Shown here one piece after another: positions 1-5,566 of a stretch of DNA of 5,566 nt. A model generated the notes under the pieces. It made no database searches. It saw only the letters and a program-made list of their open reading frames with translations, and was not told the DNA's origin. The position numbers and the translations under genes were made by a program. This DNA comes from a virus (Duplodnaviria > Heunggongvirae > Uroviricota > Caudoviricetes), in IMG/VR virus record IMGVR_UViG_2695420822_000010, one strand, 5' to 3'. Each line of letters starts with the position of its first letter. The stretch's first letter is position 1.

Positions 1-950
1 ACGCGCTTGCGGGTAAGCAACCGAAAGATGCCACCCTGACGGCGCTGGCCGGACTTACTACTGCGGCAGGCAAGTTTCCGTATTTTACGGGGAATGATGT
101 CGCCAGCCTGGCAACCCTGACAAAAGTCGGGCGGGATATTCTTGCGAAATCGACCGTTGCCGCCGTTATCGAATACCTCGGTTTACGAGAACTCGGCACA
201 AGCGGGGAGAAAATACCGTTACTCAGTACAGCGAATACCTGGACTAATCGACAAACATTCAGCGGTGGCCTTTCTGGTGAACTATCCGGCAATGCTTCTA
301 CAGCTGCAAAATTAAAAACTGCCAGGAAAATAAGCAATGTGGCTTTTGATGGTTCCTCCGATATCACATTAAAAGCAAGTCATGTTGGTGCGTTTGCCTT
401 AGGGAAAACAGGAAGCACCGTTGCGAATGATAAAGCAGTTGGATGGAACTGGAGTAGCGGAGCCTATAACGCAACTATTAGTGGTGCATCAACGTTAATT
501 ATTCATTTTTATATGGGAGAAGGAAGTTGTCCTGCAGCTCAGTTTCGGATTAATTATAAAAATGGCGGTATTTTTTATCGTTCAGCCCGTGATGGTTATG
601 GTTTTGAAGCCGACTGGTCCGAATTTTACACCACCAGAAAACCTTCAGCAGGAGATGTTGGTGCACTGCCGTTATCTGGTGGTCAACTGAATGGTGCACT
701 GGGTATCGGAACATCCAGTGCTCTTGGCGGTAATTCGATTGTATTGGGTGATAATGACACGGGCTTTAAACAAAAAGGCGATGGTAATCTGGATGTTTAT
801 GCTAATAACGTCCATGTTATGCGCTTTGTCTCCGGAAGCATTCAAAGTAATAAAACCATAAATATTACGGGACGTGTTAATCCCTCGGATTACGGTAACT
901 TTGATTCCCGCTATGTGAGAGATGTCAGACTTGGCACACGAGTTGTTTAG
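1..950 (+). CDS. stf: Side tail fibre protein (lambdoid Stf-like), C-terminal portion, cassette A. 5' end lies outside the window (codon phase 3); reading frame ends at an in-frame TAG at 948-950.
   Basis: The frame is open from base 3 to 950 with no stop. The translation (..[71 protein letters not shown]) shares a [14 protein letters not shown] block and a VRD(V/I)RLG block with the minus-strand cassette C protein (4292-5104). The supplied ORF 339..950 only starts at the first GTG; the true ORF continues upstream. Confidence 0.8.
   Translation, partial: ALAGKQPKDATLTALAGLTTAAGKFPYFTGNDVASLATLTKVGRDILAKSTVAAVIEYLGLRELGTSGEKIPLLSTANTWTNRQTFSGGLSGELSGNASTAAKLKTARKISNVAFDGSSDITLKASHVGAFALGKTGSTVANDKAVGWNWSSGAYNATISGASTLIIHFYMGEGSCPAAQFRINYKNGGIFYRSARDGYGFEADWSEFYTTRKPSAGDVGALPLSGGQLNGALGIGTSSALGGNSIVLGDNDTGFKQKGDGNLDVYANNVHVMRFVSGSIQSNKTINITGRVNPSDYGNFDSRYVRDVRLGTRVV
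166..191. other. Candidate serine-invertase crossover site (gix/hix/cix/pix-like), 12-2-12 imperfect dyad TTATCGAATACC-TC-GGTTTACGAGAA, inside the tail fibre coding sequence.
   Basis: Read directly. The left half TTATCGAATACC and the reverse complement of the right half TTCTCGTAAACC both fit the half-site TTATCnnAAACC of Hin/Gin-family crossover sites (consensus quoted from memory), with a 2-bp centre. It lies in frame in the tail fibre gene (encodes VIEYLGLRE), as gix sites do in Mu S. Confidence 0.55.
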
Positions 951-1100
951 ACCATGAAGAAAGGCGTGATGTATGAAAAATCAGGCCATGTAATCACGGG
1001 GCTTGGTATTATCGGTGAAGTCGATGGTGATGATCCGGCAGTATTCAGACCAATACAAAAGTTAATTAACGGAACATGGTATAACGTATCGCAGGTATAA
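951..1100 (+). pseudogene. In-frame continuation of cassette A after the TAG at 948-950; encodes the conserved tail-fibre C-terminal end (..[28 protein letters not shown]), stop TAA at 1098-1100. Together with 1-950 it forms one ancestral ORF interrupted by an amber codon.
   Basis: Same frame as 1-950. The translation [49 protein letters not shown] aligns with the C-termini of cassette C (..[41 protein letters not shown]) and cassette B (..[17 protein letters not shown]), and the homology runs straight across the TAG. A tfa start codon follows 2 nt after the stop, as at the other two cassettes. Confidence 0.7.
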
Positions 1101-1102
1101 TC

Positions 1103-1587
1103 ATGCAGCATTTAAAAAACATTGTCGCAGGTAATCCAAAAACCGTTGAACAATACCAGCTAACAAAGAATTTTGATGTTATCTGGTTATGGTCCGAAGA
1201 TGGAAAAAATTGGCATGAGGAATTAAAAAACTTTCAGGAGGATACAATAAAACTGGCTTACACAGTTGAGGGAATAATTATTGCTATAGACAAGGATGTA
1301 TCAGCAATTAATCCAGAAGGTTTAAGTGTCGTTGAGTTGCCTGATATTACAGCAAATCGCCGGGCTGATATTTCGGGCAACTGGATGTTCAAAGATGGTG
1401 CGGTGATAAAGCGAACTTATACCGAGGAAGAGCAAAGGCAACAAGCGGAAAATGAAAAGCAGAGCCTGCTGCAGCTCGTCAGGGATAAAACCCAGCTGTG
1501 GGACTCTCAGCTACAGCTGGGCATCATTTCCGATGAGAATAAACAAAAATTAACCGAGTGGATGCTCTATGCGCAGAAGGTTGAATC
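1103..1587 (+). CDS. tfa: Tail fibre assembly protein (Tfa family chaperone), cassette A; 3' end lost at the N-run 1588-1598.
   Basis: ATG at 1103, 2 nt after the tail-fibre stop. The translation [55 protein letters not shown] is homologous to the other two tfa copies in the window. The tail of the supplied ORF (1599-1660) is IS sequence read in an arbitrary frame after the gap and is not part of tfa. Confidence 0.85.
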
Positions 1588-1598
1588 NNNNNNNNNNN
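1588..1598. other. Run of 11 N (assembly gap or mask) joining the tfa cassette A sequence to the interior of the IS element.
   Basis: Read directly. Coding sequence of two unrelated genes abuts the N-run on either side. Confidence 0.9.
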
Positions 1599-1599
1599 T

Positions 1600-1839
1600 G
1601 AAAATCAACTTTCGATCAGTGAAGGCGCTTCCCGATTATCTCTTCCTGAAGGCACTTTAGGACAATGGGTTACCGCCGCCAGAAAAGGGCTCGGTACTCC
1701 TGGTTCCCGCACGGTGGCTGAACTGGAATCTGAAATTCTGCAACTGCGTAAGGCGTTAAATGAAGCTCGCCTTGAGCGAGATATATTAAAAAAAGCAACA
1801 GCGTATTTTGCACAGGAGTCGCTGAAAAATACGCGTTAA
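1600..1839 (+). CDS. IS3-family transposase OrfA, C-terminal fragment (..ENQLSISEGASRLSLPEGTLGQWVTAARKGLGTPGSRTVAELESEILQLRKALNEARLERDILKKATAYFAQESLKNTR*).
   Basis: Open frame from the gap edge to TAA at 1837-1839. It has the leucine-zipper-like C-terminus characteristic of IS3-family OrfA and carries the slippery A-run near its 3' end. Confidence 0.8.
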   Translation, partial: ENQLSISEGASRLSLPEGTLGQWVTAARKGLGTPGSRTVAELESEILQLRKALNEARLERDILKKATAYFAQESLKNTR

Positions 1840-1874
1840 TCGAACAATGGCGACAACAATTTCCCATTGAAGCG

Positions 1875-2693
1875 ATGTGTCAGGTATTTGGTGTATCCAG
1901 GAGCGGTTATTACAACTGGGTACAGCATGAACCCTCAGACAGAAAACAAAGTGATGAGCGGCTAAAACTGGAGATTAAGGTGGCACATATCCGCACTCGC
2001 GAAACATATGGAACCCGGCGGCTCCAGACGGAGCTGGCAGAGAATGGCATCATCGTTGGTCGTGACCGACTGGCACGTCTTCGTAAGGAGCTAAGGCTAC
2101 GCTGTAAGCAGAAACGCAAGTTCAGAGCGACTACGAACTCGAACCACAATCTGCCAGTTGCGCCAAATCTGCTGAACCAGACGTTCGCTCCTACAGCACC
2201 AAATCAGGTCTGGGTGGCGGACCTGACGTATGTTGCCACACAGGAGGGATGGTTGTACCTCGCTGGCATCAAAGATGTTTATACGTGCGAAATTGTCGGC
2301 TACGCCATGGGAGAGCGCATGACAAAAGAGCTGACAGGTAAAGCCCTGTTTATGGCGCTCAGGAGCCAGCGCCCACCTGCCGGGCTAATCCACCACTCTG
2401 ATCGAGGTTCACAGTACTGCGCATACGATTACCGGGTCATACAGGAGCAGTCTGGTCTGAAAACATCAATGTCGCGTAAAGGTAACTGTTACGACAACGC
2501 TCCGATGGAAAGCTTCTGGGGAACGCTGAAAAATGAGAGCCTGAGCCACTATCGTTTTAATAACCGGGATGAAGCCATCTCAGTAATACGGGAATACATT
2601 GAGATTTTCTACAATCGTCAGCGTCGTCACTCTCGTCTGGGGAATATCTCCCCGGCAGCCTTCAGGGAAAAATATCATCAGATGGCTGCTTAA
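1875..2693 (+). CDS. IS3-family transposase OrfB (DDE catalytic domain). The frame is open from 1791, so it is most likely expressed as an OrfAB fusion by -1 frameshifting at 1788-1794.
   Basis: The 272-aa ORF (MCQVFGVSRSGYYNW..VWVADLTYV..HSDRGSQY..CYDNAPMESFWGTLKNE..) carries the spacing and residues expected of an IS3-family DDE transposase. It lies in the -1 frame relative to OrfA and overlaps it. Confidence 0.9.
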   Translation: MCQVFGVSRSGYYNWVQHEPSDRKQSDERLKLEIKVAHIRTRETYGTRRLQTELAENGIIVGRDRLARLRKELRLRCKQKRKFRATTNSNHNLPVAPNLLNQTFAPTAPNQVWVADLTYVATQEGWLYLAGIKDVYTCEIVGYAMGERMTKELTGKALFMALRSQRPPAGLIHHSDRGSQYCAYDYRVIQEQSGLKTSMSRKGNCYDNAPMESFWGTLKNESLSHYRFNNRDEAISVIREYIEIFYNRQRRHSRLGNISPAAFREKYHQMAA

Positions 2694-2736
2694 AAAAAGA
2701 ACAAATGGTAGTGTCCGCTATTGCCAGTACACCTCA

Positions 2737-3003
2737 GAGTTTTACACCACAACCCGCAAACCCTCTGCGGGAGATGTTGGTGCATATACGCAGGCAGAAT
2801 GTAACTCAAGGTTTATTACAGGTATTCGCCTTGGTGGTCTGTTATCTGTTCAGACATGGAATGGTCCCGGATGGTCTGACAGGTCAGGTTATGTTGTTAC
2901 CGGTTCCGTTAACTCAAACAGAGATGAACTAATTGATACAACTCAGGCAAGGCCAATTCAGTATTGCATTAATGGGACGTGGTATAACGCGGGGAGTATT
3001 TAA
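2737..3003 (+). pseudogene. Tail fibre C-terminal cassette B, 3' fragment ([52 protein letters not shown]), with its 5' part displaced by the IS element.
   Basis: The supplied ORF 2599..3003 is IS terminal sequence up to 2736 and tail-fibre-like only from 2737. The fragment begins exactly at the motif EFYTT(T)RKPSAGDVGA, which is also present in cassette A at 621-665, and ends with the conserved RPIQ..I.G.WYN tip. A tfa start follows 2 nt later. Confidence 0.7.
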
Positions 3004-3005
3004 CG

Positions 3006-3695
3006 ATGATGCACTTAAAAAACATTTCTGCTGGTAATCCTGAAACAAAAGAGCAATACCAGCTAACGAAACAATTTAACATCAAATGGCTTTATACAGA
3101 GGATGGGAAAAACTGGTATGAGGAACAAAAGAACTTTCAGCCTGATACGTTGAAAATGGTCTATGACCACAACGGCGTTATTATTTGTATTGAAAAGGAT
3201 GTTTCAGCAATTAATCCGGAAGGCGCAAGCGTCGTTGAGGTTCCTGATATTACAGCAAATCGCCGGGCTGATATTTCGGGCAACTGGATGTTCAAAGATG
3301 GTGCGGTGATAAAGCGAACTTATACCGAGGAAGAGCAAAGGCAACAAGCGGAAAATGAAAAGCAGAGCCTGCTGCAGCTCGTCNNNNNNNNNNAGGTTCC
3401 TGATATTACAGCAAATCGCCGGGCTGATATTTCAGGTAAATGGATGTTCAAAGATGGCGTAGTGATAAAGCGAACTTATACCGGGGAAGAGCAGAGGCAA
3501 CAAGCGGAAAATGAAAAGCAAAGCCTGCTACAGCTCGTCAGGGATAAAACCCAGCTATGGGACTCACAGCTACGGCTGGGCATTATTTCCGACGAGAATA
3601 AACAAAAATTAACCGAGTGGATGCTCTATGCGCAGAAGGTCGAATCCACAGACACCTCCAGCCTGCCAGTAACGTTTCCCGAACAACCAGAATGA
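3006..3695 (+). CDS. tfa: Tail fibre assembly protein (Tfa family), cassette B. The ORF as assembled contains a 10-N gap (3384-3393) and a duplicated segment of roughly 140 bp, so the real protein is probably about 180 aa rather than 229.
   Basis: [22 protein letters not shown].. with stop TGA at 3693-3695. Segment 3243-3383 is identical to cassette A tfa 1340-1480. The sequence after the gap restarts at the same point (aggttcctgatattacagc..) as a roughly 94%-identical version. Confidence 0.8.
3384..3393. other. Run of 10 N inside tfa cassette B, flanked by two overlapping versions of the same tfa segment (contig-overlap join).
   Basis: Read directly; see the duplicated peptide [14 protein letters not shown](N/K)WMFKDG.. 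on both sides. Confidence 0.9.
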
Positions 3696-3698
3696 GAG

Positions 3699-3718
3699 AA
3701 GGCCCGCTATCGGGCCTT
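3699..3718. terminator. Perfect hairpin AAGGCCCG-CTAT-CGGGCCTT located 3 nt after the tfa cassette B stop, between the convergent tfa genes; candidate bidirectional intrinsic terminator.
   Basis: An 8-bp GC-rich stem with a 4-nt loop, read directly. The downstream U-tract cannot be assessed because the N-run starts at 3719. Confidence 0.5.
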
Positions 3719-3865
3719 NNNNNNNNNNNNNNNNNNNNNNNNNNNNNNNNNNNNNNNNNNNNNNNNNNNNNNNNNNNNNNNNNNNNNNNNNNNNNNNNNN
3801 NNNNNNNNNNNNNNNNNNNNNNNNNNNNNNNNNNNNNNNNNNNNNNNNNNNNNNNNNNNNNNNNN
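3719..3865. other. Run of 147 N; probably hides the 3' end of the minus-strand tfa (cassette C).
   Basis: tfa cassette C shows 141 codons before running into the gap; Tfa proteins in this window run to about 175-185 aa. Confidence 0.8.
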
Positions 3866-4290
3866 GCCATATTCAGCCTGACAGCGCGTTCCAGCGGCTG
3901 GATGACTGATTCAGCTTCGGAAAGCAATGCGGCCTTTTGTGATTCGGCCTGTTGTTGCAGTTCCTGTTCTGTATATTCCCTCTTTACTACTTTACCATCC
4001 AGAAACATCCATTTTCCGTTATTGTCTGCGTGACGATTTGCCGTAATATCAGGAACTTCAACTATGCTTAGCCCTTCAGGATTAATAGTTGAAACGTCTT
4101 TACTGACAGCAACGATGATGTTGTTCTCATCGTAAGCAATTTTTATGGTGTCTGGCTGAAAATTCTTTTGTTCCTCATACCAGTTTTTGCCATCTTCGCA
4201 AAAGAGCCATACCACGCCCGCTTTTTTAGTTAGCTGGTATTGTTCCGGTGTTTTCGGATTCCCGGCCTTAATATTTTTCAGGTGCATCAT
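3866..4290 (-). CDS. tfa: Tail fibre assembly protein (Tfa family), cassette C, minus strand; 3' end lies in the gap.
   Basis: The start is ATG ATG at complement 4290-4285 ([39 protein letters not shown]..), 1 nt after the stop of the minus-strand tail-fibre cassette. The first 12 codons of the supplied ORF ([12 protein letters not shown]) overlap the tail-fibre stop and are not used. Confidence 0.8.
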
Positions 4291-4291
4291 C

Positions 4292-5104
4292 TTAAACACT
4301 CCCCACGTTGTACCATATTCCCCCAATCAATTTCTGAATTGGCCTTCTGGCAACAGTGTCGACAATATCATCCGCATTGCTGTTAATTGCGGCTGTTAAA
4401 ACATAACCTGACGCATCGCCAAAGCCGTAGTCGCGCCATACGTTTTTATATTCAATGCTGCCAAGACGAATATCCCGAACGACATGATTATGCAGCCATG
4501 TGCTTAACCAGTTGTTTTCCCACACTGAACCATAAATATCGCCACTAGACGCAACTTGCGCACCACTTCCCAGCGCAAATCCCCCATCTGTTTTAAAAAT
4601 GAAATCACCACCACCATCTGAACCGTTATTAATATGAACACCATCACCACCGTTATCTTTCCACAAAAACATACGAATTCTTCCGTCTTCGTTGGCGAAT
4701 GTAATGTGGTGGCGGTAATTACTTTTTAATCTAAAATTGCTGCCATTAGATTCAATATCTTTATAAAGATGTAATCCTAACTCATCAATATGTCCGATGC
4801 GCGAACCATTTGAATAGAAGCTAATAATACCATCTCCATCTTGCCTAAATCCGGTGTCGTTATCTCCCAGAACAATGGAGTTTTCACCCAGTGCGTTATC
4901 AGTAGCTCCAATAGCTAGACCTCCTTTAATTTTGGCCCCGTGGCTGACAGATATAGCACCTGTTCTCAGATTTATAGCGAATGGCCTTAATGGGCCGATA
5001 TTACCGTTTTCGCCTTGTCCTTCAGCCGTCGGAATGAAATGAAGAAAATCTTCTGAACGACGGAAAATTAGACCGAAGGTATCATTGAAAATTCGCAGCG
5101 CATT
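4292..5104 (-). CDS. Tail fibre C-terminal cassette C, minus strand (receptor-binding tip variant); 5' part hidden by the 381-N run.
   Basis: Stop TAA at complement 4294-4292. The translation ..[58 protein letters not shown] shares blocks with cassette A but carries about 74 extra residues between the GDNDTGF block and the tip. Confidence 0.8.
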
Positions 5105-5485
5105 NNNNNNNNNNNNNNNNNNNNNNNNNNNNNNNNNNNNNNNNNNNNNNNNNNNNNNNNNNNNNNNNNNNNNNNNNNNNNNNNNNNNNNNNNNNNNNNN
5201 NNNNNNNNNNNNNNNNNNNNNNNNNNNNNNNNNNNNNNNNNNNNNNNNNNNNNNNNNNNNNNNNNNNNNNNNNNNNNNNNNNNNNNNNNNNNNNNNNNNN
5301 NNNNNNNNNNNNNNNNNNNNNNNNNNNNNNNNNNNNNNNNNNNNNNNNNNNNNNNNNNNNNNNNNNNNNNNNNNNNNNNNNNNNNNNNNNNNNNNNNNNN
5401 NNNNNNNNNNNNNNNNNNNNNNNNNNNNNNNNNNNNNNNNNNNNNNNNNNNNNNNNNNNNNNNNNNNNNNNNNNNNNNNNNNNNN
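5105..5485. other. Run of 381 N inside the minus-strand tail-fibre cassette.
   Basis: Read directly. Confidence 0.9.
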
Positions 5486-5566
5486 GTCACTGTATGCGGC
5501 ATCTTGTCGTGCTGGTGGTGGAAGCCTAGAAAAAGTATCGGGTGTTGCTGAACCGTGTTGATACAT

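Follow-up and report, generated by a model that had tools for sequence, protein, structure and literature searches.

Does a phage locus with three tail-fibre tips, each followed by its own tail-fibre assembly (tfa) gene, form a multi-way host-range switch? The question is raised by a 5,566-nucleotide (nt) stretch of the virus record IMGVR_UViG_2695420822_000010, hereafter the window, which carries three such tip-plus-tfa cassettes (A, B and C). An earlier note had read them as one contiguous, Min- or shufflon-like multiple-inversion locus or a remnant of one. The gene ends given there held up: open reading frames (ORFs) and Pfam matches place the tip ends at 1100 (+) and 3003 (+), the stop of the third tip at 4292-4294 (-) and the tfa starts at 1103, 3006 and 4290 (-), and the tfa genes match Pfam Caudo_TAP. 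The arrangement did not. Judged from comparison with related genomes, the window is very probably a scaffold artefact, in which contigs of a P2-like prophage have been threaded into the known two-cassette invertible segment of a lambdoid prophage. The source would be a scaffold from a short-read draft, either of Shigella sonnei or of something very closely related to it. Two repeat-bounded contigs from the P2-like prophage, one with the insertion sequence (IS) IS600, the remnant of cassette B and the 5' part of tfaB, the other with the 3' part of tfaB, would have been placed between the halves of the lambdoid segment.

Cassettes A and C are adjacent in finished genomes

The window consists of five sequence blocks split by N runs of 11, 10, 147 and 381 bases (Table 1). 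All joins between cassettes run across these N runs, and the block ends fall within tfa repeats common to several cassettes. The layout in which B and C face each other across a hairpin straddles the 147-N gap, and the join of A to IS600 and B straddles the 11-N gap. Deliberate masking was rejected as the origin of the N runs; an independent NCBI draft of S. sonnei (L012) shows the same N-run style.

We compared 10 kilobases (kb) on either side of cassette A in eight complete chromosomes (L004-L011), which were reached through a 48-amino-acid (aa) ORF. Their assignment to S. sonnei rests on protein names, including that of HE616528.1 (L007), which we take to be strain 53G. Cassettes A and C were directly adjacent and convergent in 8/8 of these gap-free chromosomes, at 99.7-100% identity to the window. 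No B-type cassette matched at 90% identity or above within these ±10 kb regions of the eight chromosomes. After tfaA come 28 nt with a terminator-like hairpin, located by scan at L011 10687-10706, and then tfaC and tip C.

The individual blocks fit this order closely. Window 1-1587 is 99.94% identical to L011 9048-10634, and window 3866-5104 is 100% identical to L007 10815-12053, directly after tfaA. Past the equivalent of 1587, L011 continues with the rest of tfaA, the terminator and tfaC, so that the equivalents of 1587 and 3866 lie 180 nt apart in finished genomes as against 2,278 in the window. At least 49 nt of tfaA and at least 126 nt of IS600 are missing at the 11-N gap, which is therefore not to be taken literally. 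The 381-N gap is covered by L011 12051-12406; block 5 (5486-5566) is 100% identical to L011 12406-12486, and from this placement the 381 Ns stand for 354 real bases in L011. Contiguity of the three cassettes is thus not confirmed, given the N runs between them and the adjacency of A and C in every finished genome compared.

Cassette B derives from a P2-like prophage

The IS600 copy in the window is 100% identical to IS600 copies of S. sonnei and 99.9% identical to RefSeq features annotated as IS3-like element IS600 family transposase. Its orfB product matches NCBIfam transpos_IS3 (E=1e-99, 334 bits against a cut-off of 160) as well as Pfam rve and HTH_21. The element is thus a member of the IS600 group, the left ~126 nt of which are absent from the window. 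The cassette B remnant beside it is 98.5-100% identical to the P2-like prophage of E. coli FDAARGOS_943 (L003), where the match starts at position 6348 within a cassette ORF of 744 nt. This silent cassette (98.5-100%) is its closest complete relative, followed by the silent cassette in the Mu-like prophage of E. coli MIN10 (L002, 95%), and each of the two adjoins an intact serine recombinase.

The junction between IS600 and B was also found in the S. sonnei draft L012 (CXCB01000030.1, GCA_001255415.1), by way of a spurious 75-aa junction ORF, and there it sits inside a P2-like prophage. The order in L012 is P2-type gpV, W, J, I, the constant part of H, a crossover site, the 5' part of B, a gap, IS600, the 3' part of B and tfaB. 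On one contig, tfaB is linked to a hairpin of the type found between B and a fourth cassette, D, and then to tfaD and tip D. Past tip D come a bixR site, one of the two crossover sites (bixL and bixR) of the PinB system (Table 3 in PMC3241671), and the beginning of a recombinase gene, of which 56 residues are visible and 100% identical to the L003 gene product. By these relationships, cassette B is the IS600-truncated half of a B-pinB-type segment that belongs to a P2-like prophage and in which cassette D is the true partner.

L012 also contains the lambdoid A block, inserted at a different place (7481-8893) and again between N runs. Two drafts thus give two chimeric orders and the finished genomes one, which argues for scaffolding errors caused by the constant-region, tfa and IS600 repeats. 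Separate prophages joined by scaffolding, the outcome that the earlier note had itself set against its proposal, is what the eight complete chromosomes point to, and the different chimeric order of L012 supports it.

Outside L012 the junction was elusive. The exact 48-nt IS600-B junction pattern did not occur in GTDB representative genomes, IMG/VR or JGI metagenomes, no E. coli complete genome searched covered the junction, and none of ten IS600 contexts from finished genomes contained cassette B. The 134-aa tip ORF matched no record, and a search for tfaB homologues gave only non-identical cluster representatives. The chromosomes of E. coli FDAARGOS_943 and CFSAN004176 (NZ_CP065615.1, NZ_CP014583.1) have ~30 and ~40 places, respectively, that match the IS600 end, and genomes labelled E. 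coli can thus carry Shigella-like IS loads.

Mosaic contig ends and a possible real rearrangement

The two parts of tfaB bear on how the B contigs came to lie where they do. The 146 nt before and after the 10-N gap are two versions of one tfa segment, identical at 136/146 positions (10 differences). The version after the gap is identical to tfaB of the E. coli P2-like prophage L003 (146/146), whereas that before it matches tfaA at 144/146 positions and the L003 tfaB at only 136/146. Block 2 accordingly turns to tfaA-type past a 33-nt common stretch, and its mismatches to L012 begin at 3278. When 3006-3237 and 3394-3695 are spliced, they encode a protein identical to the tfa product of L003 (annotated WP_000972127.1), so block 3 would be the true 3' part of tfaB. 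Block 3 in turn carries tfaB-type variants to 3641, then 54 identical bases, and then hairpin variants at 3696, 3698 and 3707 that are of the A/C intergenic type, not the B/D hairpin type. The mosaic contig ends (3245-3383 and 3642-3718) resemble repeat collapse or mis-threading in k-mer assembly. Further tfa 3' fragments are present at L001 (E. coli NCTC86) 12453-12536 and 13409-13585 and at L004 7783-8007, where they adjoin the dead recombinase gene and a methyltransferase gene; they amount to more copies of the tfa repeat that could confuse assembly.

The same mosaics are what a real rearrangement in this strain would leave behind, and of the alternatives this one survives best, although we consider it unlikely. 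Homologous recombination between the tfa 3' repeats (~250 nt) of the two prophages would have brought IS600-B-tfaB to face tfaC-C, giving a two-cassette hybrid with A elsewhere. Block 2 would then be a genuine hybrid of tfaB 5' and tfaA-type 3' sequence, and block 3 would tie tfaB-type variants to the A/C-type hairpin within one contig. Yet block 1 contains an unrecombined tfaA, its tail showing no mismatches to L011 and A-type variants up to the block end, and the three contigs cannot all hold with two tfa copies. The switches also lie within identical stretches of 33 and 54 nt, as is typical of mis-threading in k-mer graphs, the annotation of L001 places further tfa 3' fragments nearby, and A and C are neighbours in all eight finished genomes.

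Several observations do weigh against a scaffold artefact or against the account of the locus given below. The join of tfaB-type sequence to the A/C-type hairpin in block 3 lies inside a contig and not over Ns, and could be that of a real recombinant. B-like and C-like cassettes are true partners in the Mu-like prophage of MIN10 (95-97% identity). Both drafts place the IS600-B contig right after the A block, which might reflect a real link as well as a pipeline bias. The B locus was not located in a finished S. sonnei genome among the ten IS600 contexts and four junction collections. Finally, PinB, the invertase of the P2-like prophage, is seen in S. sonnei only as its first 56 codons in L012, and we infer its action in trans.

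Cassettes A and C form an invertible segment

The window has a 26-base-pair (bp) crossover site of the Din family between the constant part of the fibre gene and tip A (Table 1). It is the sole match to a Gin-type pattern in the window (3 mismatches), and 0/200 shuffled sequences gave any match. Read in reverse complement, it differs from bixL at two positions, both in the half-site on the cassette A side. The partner site of the A/C segment, present in collinear complete genomes, is an exact bixR and would lie within the 381-N gap. In L011 the two sites are at 9213-9238 and 12127-12152, and both have a TC core.

Comparison of chromosomes in opposite states indicates that the segment inverts at these sites. 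In L011 the site between the constant part and A reads TTATCGAATACC TC GGTTTACGAGAA, and that between the recombinase side and C reads TTATCTAAAACC TC GGTTTACAGGAA. In L007 (HE616528.1) and L004 the recombinase side is joined to A by TTATCTAAAACC TC GGTTTACGAGAA, and in L007 the constant part is joined to C by TTATCGAATACC TC GGTTTACAGGAA. Between L011 and L007/L004, the 40-nt flanks and the half-sites are thus swapped exactly at the 2-bp TC core, a comparison between strains as distinct from switching within a culture. Half-site exchange placed exactly at a 2-bp core is what a serine invertase leaves behind, in contrast to general recombination. The inversion breakpoints fall within 27 nt (160-186).

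Either orientation gives an in-frame fibre. In L011 an 875-aa ORF runs from the constant part into A and ends at a TAG in tip A, and in L007 a 918-aa ORF joins the constant part to C; both contain phage_tail_N, and the window is in the constant-A state. The equivalent of the window's constant part lies in the 3' part of the 875-aa ORF, downstream of J and lom. The prophage is lambdoid (tape measure, L, J, lom and an stf with phage_tail_N) and adjoins the trp operon.

The A/C locus therefore has two inverted 26-bp dix-type sites with the same central dinucleotide, convergent tip-plus-tfa cassettes between them, a constant 5' part outside that is in frame in either orientation, and inversion at the sites from strain to strain. 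On this sequence evidence it is a classical Din-type (Gin/Pin/PinB) invertible tail-fibre segment of a lambdoid prophage, minus a functional adjacent recombinase. The earlier suggestion of an invertible segment of the Mu G, P1 C or e14 P type was right in that a real segment with a crossover site exists, and wrong as to the partners, which are A and C instead of B and C. The real order would be stf constant part, bixL-like site, tip A and tfaA, terminator, tfaC and tip C in the opposite direction, bixR site and dead pin gene. As in Mu G-gin, e14 P-pin and Shigella B-pinB, a serine invertase would cut at the TC/GA dinucleotide in the middle of each 26-bp site and invert the segment, so that the constant part of the fibre continues in frame into either tip A or tip C.

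Homologous recombination between inverted repeats, in place of a site-specific recombinase, is a very unlikely source of the orientation difference. In its favour, an inverted repeat of 781 nt and 99% identity is common to the two facing cassettes of E. coli NCTC86 (9162-9942 / 11379-12159), a length that could support RecA-dependent inversion. The S. sonnei A and C cassettes are without such a long repeat upstream of the tips, and the breakpoints within 160-186, with differing half-sites exchanged exactly at the 2-bp core of bix-type sites, point to the site-specific enzyme. Owing to the 781-nt repeat, the NCTC86 tips differ from each other in about their last 50 codons only, and both NCTC86 sites have the A-type inner half-site.

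A second candidate for a crossover site, the repeat 629-665 / 2748-2784, was rejected: it has no Din-pattern match and encodes a conserved fibre motif, EFYTT.RKPSAGDVGA. In L003 it lies ~700 nt inside the cassette.

The B/D segment of the P2-like prophage is in opposite orientations in L012 (7095-7469, H-B) and L003 (5647-6021 and 8707-8884, H-D), so this segment has also flipped between the S. sonnei draft and E. coli FDAARGOS_943. As a result, H in S. sonnei is fused to the cassette that IS600 has disrupted.

The adjacent recombinase gene is dead

A recombinase gene had been predicted just past the minus-strand cassette. A gene remnant does lie there, across the 381-N gap and the last block, but it is a pseudogene. 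The remnant at L011 12207-12494 aligns by tblastn to residues 1-99 of Pin/Gin-type recombinases, has three in-frame stops and a 3-codon alignment gap, and is truncated near residue 96; RefSeq annotates the NCTC86 copy as an incomplete recombinase. The functional adjacent serine invertase gene of Din-family loci is thus absent from the A/C locus. A minus-strand ORF of 424 aa that extends to 5566 was rejected as a fibre N-terminus; it reads through the 381 Ns, and 5486-5566 is the recombinase pseudogene on the other strand.

As the adjacent gene is dead, the A/C locus would be a recombinase-less remnant reliant on an enzyme acting in trans. The remnant is identical in L011 and L007, which are in opposite orientations, and differs by 1 nt in NCTC86, so its inactivation most likely predates the flips. 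Both orientations beside an identical dead gene imply inversion in trans, and the flips within S. sonnei were presumably catalysed by another Din invertase, with PinB of the P2-like prophage as the most likely candidate. The sites of the P2-like prophage are nearly identical to those of the A/C locus and share both outer half-sites with it. Hin, Gin, Cin and Pin generally cross-complement one another, and in known systems the 5' part of the invertase gene contains a Fis-dependent recombinational enhancer. Over its first 180 nt the dead gene agrees with intact homologues at 171-174/180 positions, and the enhancer could therefore be retained there. PinB has been cited as functional in S. sonnei (PMC3241671), and the PinQ invertase of the Qin prophage inverts the P segment of e14, so that the invertase of one cryptic prophage acts on the segment of another (PMC12529663). 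Inversion of A/C in trans would be a modest addition, a natural example beside this recent case.

If PinB flips the A/C segment, the prophage would alternate between two fibres, one full-length with tip C and the other cut short by the nonsense codon in tip A. This alternation would gain interest only if cryptic fibres of this kind have a part in phage defence, as has been reported for the StfE2 protein of e14. The A/C locus is probably a decaying prophage remnant and not a working host-range switch.

Comparison with known invertible segments

Invertible tail-fibre segments of the Gin/Pin/PinB type have been known since the 1980s-1990s, including in Shigella, and IS expansion and prophage decay are familiar traits of S. 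sonnei. The Shigella B segment with pinB was reportedly described by Tominaga et al. in 1991 (GenBank D00660). Our identification with B-pinB rests on the site table and coordinates in PMC3241671. The sites of the P2-like prophage in L003 and L012 equal bixL and bixR exactly. The lambdoid segment resembles B-pinB in its exact bixR and bixL-like sites, the same GA/TC core, two convergent tip-plus-tfa cassettes between inverted sites and a recombinase gene beside one site. It differs in lying in a lambdoid instead of a P2-like prophage, in its other tips and in its dead recombinase gene. Cassette B of the window is one half of a segment of the B-pinB type, but it is cut by IS600 and set apart from its own sites, partner and recombinase.

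The likeness to the Mu G segment with gin lies in the ~3-kb segment and in the order Sc, gix, Sv-U facing U'-Sv', gix and gin. The Mu-like prophage of MIN10 has B-like and C-like partners, gix-type sites and an intact recombinase. The half-sites in S. sonnei, however, are slightly unlike gix, and the segment lies in a lambdoid backbone (J, lom, stf) beside an inactive recombinase. The P segment of e14 with pin is likewise in a defective lambdoid prophage in which a Din invertase switches the C-terminus of the side tail fibre. The cross-prophage inversion proposed here for A/C is documented there, with PinQ (PMC12529663). In contrast to the A/C locus, e14 keeps a functional pin and has pix sites with an AA core and other half-sites (PMC3241671).

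Such cassettes have been exchanged between elements of the lambdoid, P2-like, Mu-like and P1-like kinds. Plasmids of ~90 kb, P1-like to judge by size and gene names, carry C-like tips, and in MIN10 C-like tips pair with B-like ones. A pairing of B with C therefore looks natural, yet it is not the arrangement of this species.

True linkage of the three cassettes in this strain, for instance through tfa-repeat recombination between the lambdoid and P2-like prophages, has only a slight chance of being correct. If it were, the bix-type sites of the two prophages, with PinB in trans, could yield more than two fibre variants. That the A/C segment is still flipped in trans by PinB, its own pin being dead, is much more likely.

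The likeness to Min (plasmid p15B) and the shufflon is superficial and lies in the apparent presence of over two tip cassettes side by side. In Min there are six mix sites, and the invertible segments overlap (PMC3241671), whereas gap-free genomes show the A/C locus with two sites and two cassettes, the third one being a scaffolding insert from a separate two-cassette segment. At least three sites and three cassettes on contiguous DNA would mark a Min- or shufflon-like locus, and the window lacks them. Although three tips with their own tfa genes stand in one scaffold with a crossover site, and two drafts run from the A block into IS600-B, a genuine three-cassette switch of this kind is the least credible explanation, as every inter-cassette join spans an N run, the window has one Din site where complete relatives have two per locus, IS600 has removed the 5' part of B with any site, the A and B blocks come from different types of prophage (lambdoid and P2-like), the finished genomes leave no room for B between A and C, and the adjacent recombinase gene is dead.

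The window as a scaffold artefact over decaying, already known systems thus offers nothing new as a switch. Tip and tfa repeats of tens to hundreds of bases, common to different prophages, allow short-read scaffolds to string the cassettes of separate prophages into apparent multi-cassette switches.

Features of the window

Table 1. Coordinates of the sequence features and gaps in the 5,566-nt window.
Feature	Position	Strand	Remarks
Constant, non-inverting end of stf-type side tail-fibre gene	1-165	+	
26-bp Din-family crossover site	166-191	+	bixL-like; TTATCGAATACC TC GGTTTACGAGAA
Variable cassette A (fibre tip)	192-1100	+	Pfam gp37_C
tfaA, assembly gene of cassette A	1103-1587	+	Pfam Caudo_TAP (E=3e-27); last 49 nt lost in gap
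11-N gap	1588-1598		Probable false join of lambdoid A block to IS600-B block
IS600 (IS3 family)	1599-2737	+	From element position ~127 to right end; orfB 1875-2693
Cassette B, 3' remnant (88 codons)	2738-3003	+	Truncated by IS600; cassette B span 2738-3718
tfaB, 5' part	3006-3383	+	Tail 3245-3383 with tfaA-type variants (probable repeat mis-threading)
10-N gap	3384-3393		
tfaB, 3' part (mosaic block)	3394-3718	+	Stop at 3695; includes left arm and loop of terminator hairpin
147-N gap	3719-3865		
tfaC, assembly gene of cassette C	3866-4290	-	Pfam Caudo_TAP; tfaA is its true convergent partner
Variable cassette C (fibre tip)	4292-5104	-	Pfam gp37_trimer
381-N gap	5105-5485		Would hide 5' end of cassette C, exact bixR (~5180-5232) and first ~65 codons of dead recombinase gene
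Serine-recombinase (pin-type) pseudogene fragment	5486-5566	+	In-frame stop inside

An in-frame TAG at 948-950 interrupts tip A; it is a single C-to-T change (CAG to TAG) relative to E. coli NCTC86 and splits off the last 48 codons. The split products, of 203 aa and 48 aa, are named after Shigella sonnei (including Ss046) and each occurs on at least 1000 contigs, and the nonsense mutation appears to be fixed across S. sonnei. Beside the crossover site, window position 161 is C where L011 has T; the C variant is that of the H gene of the P2-like prophage (L003 and L012), and could be a further mark left by repeat collapse, or else by an exchange involving the two constant regions.

In 5/8 of the finished S. 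sonnei chromosomes (L004, L005, L006, L008 and L010) another IS600, inserted at ~11529/11530 (window 4580), cuts tip C to 104 codons, and the remaining lambdoid prophage is rearranged there. Tip C is uninterrupted in the strain of the window.

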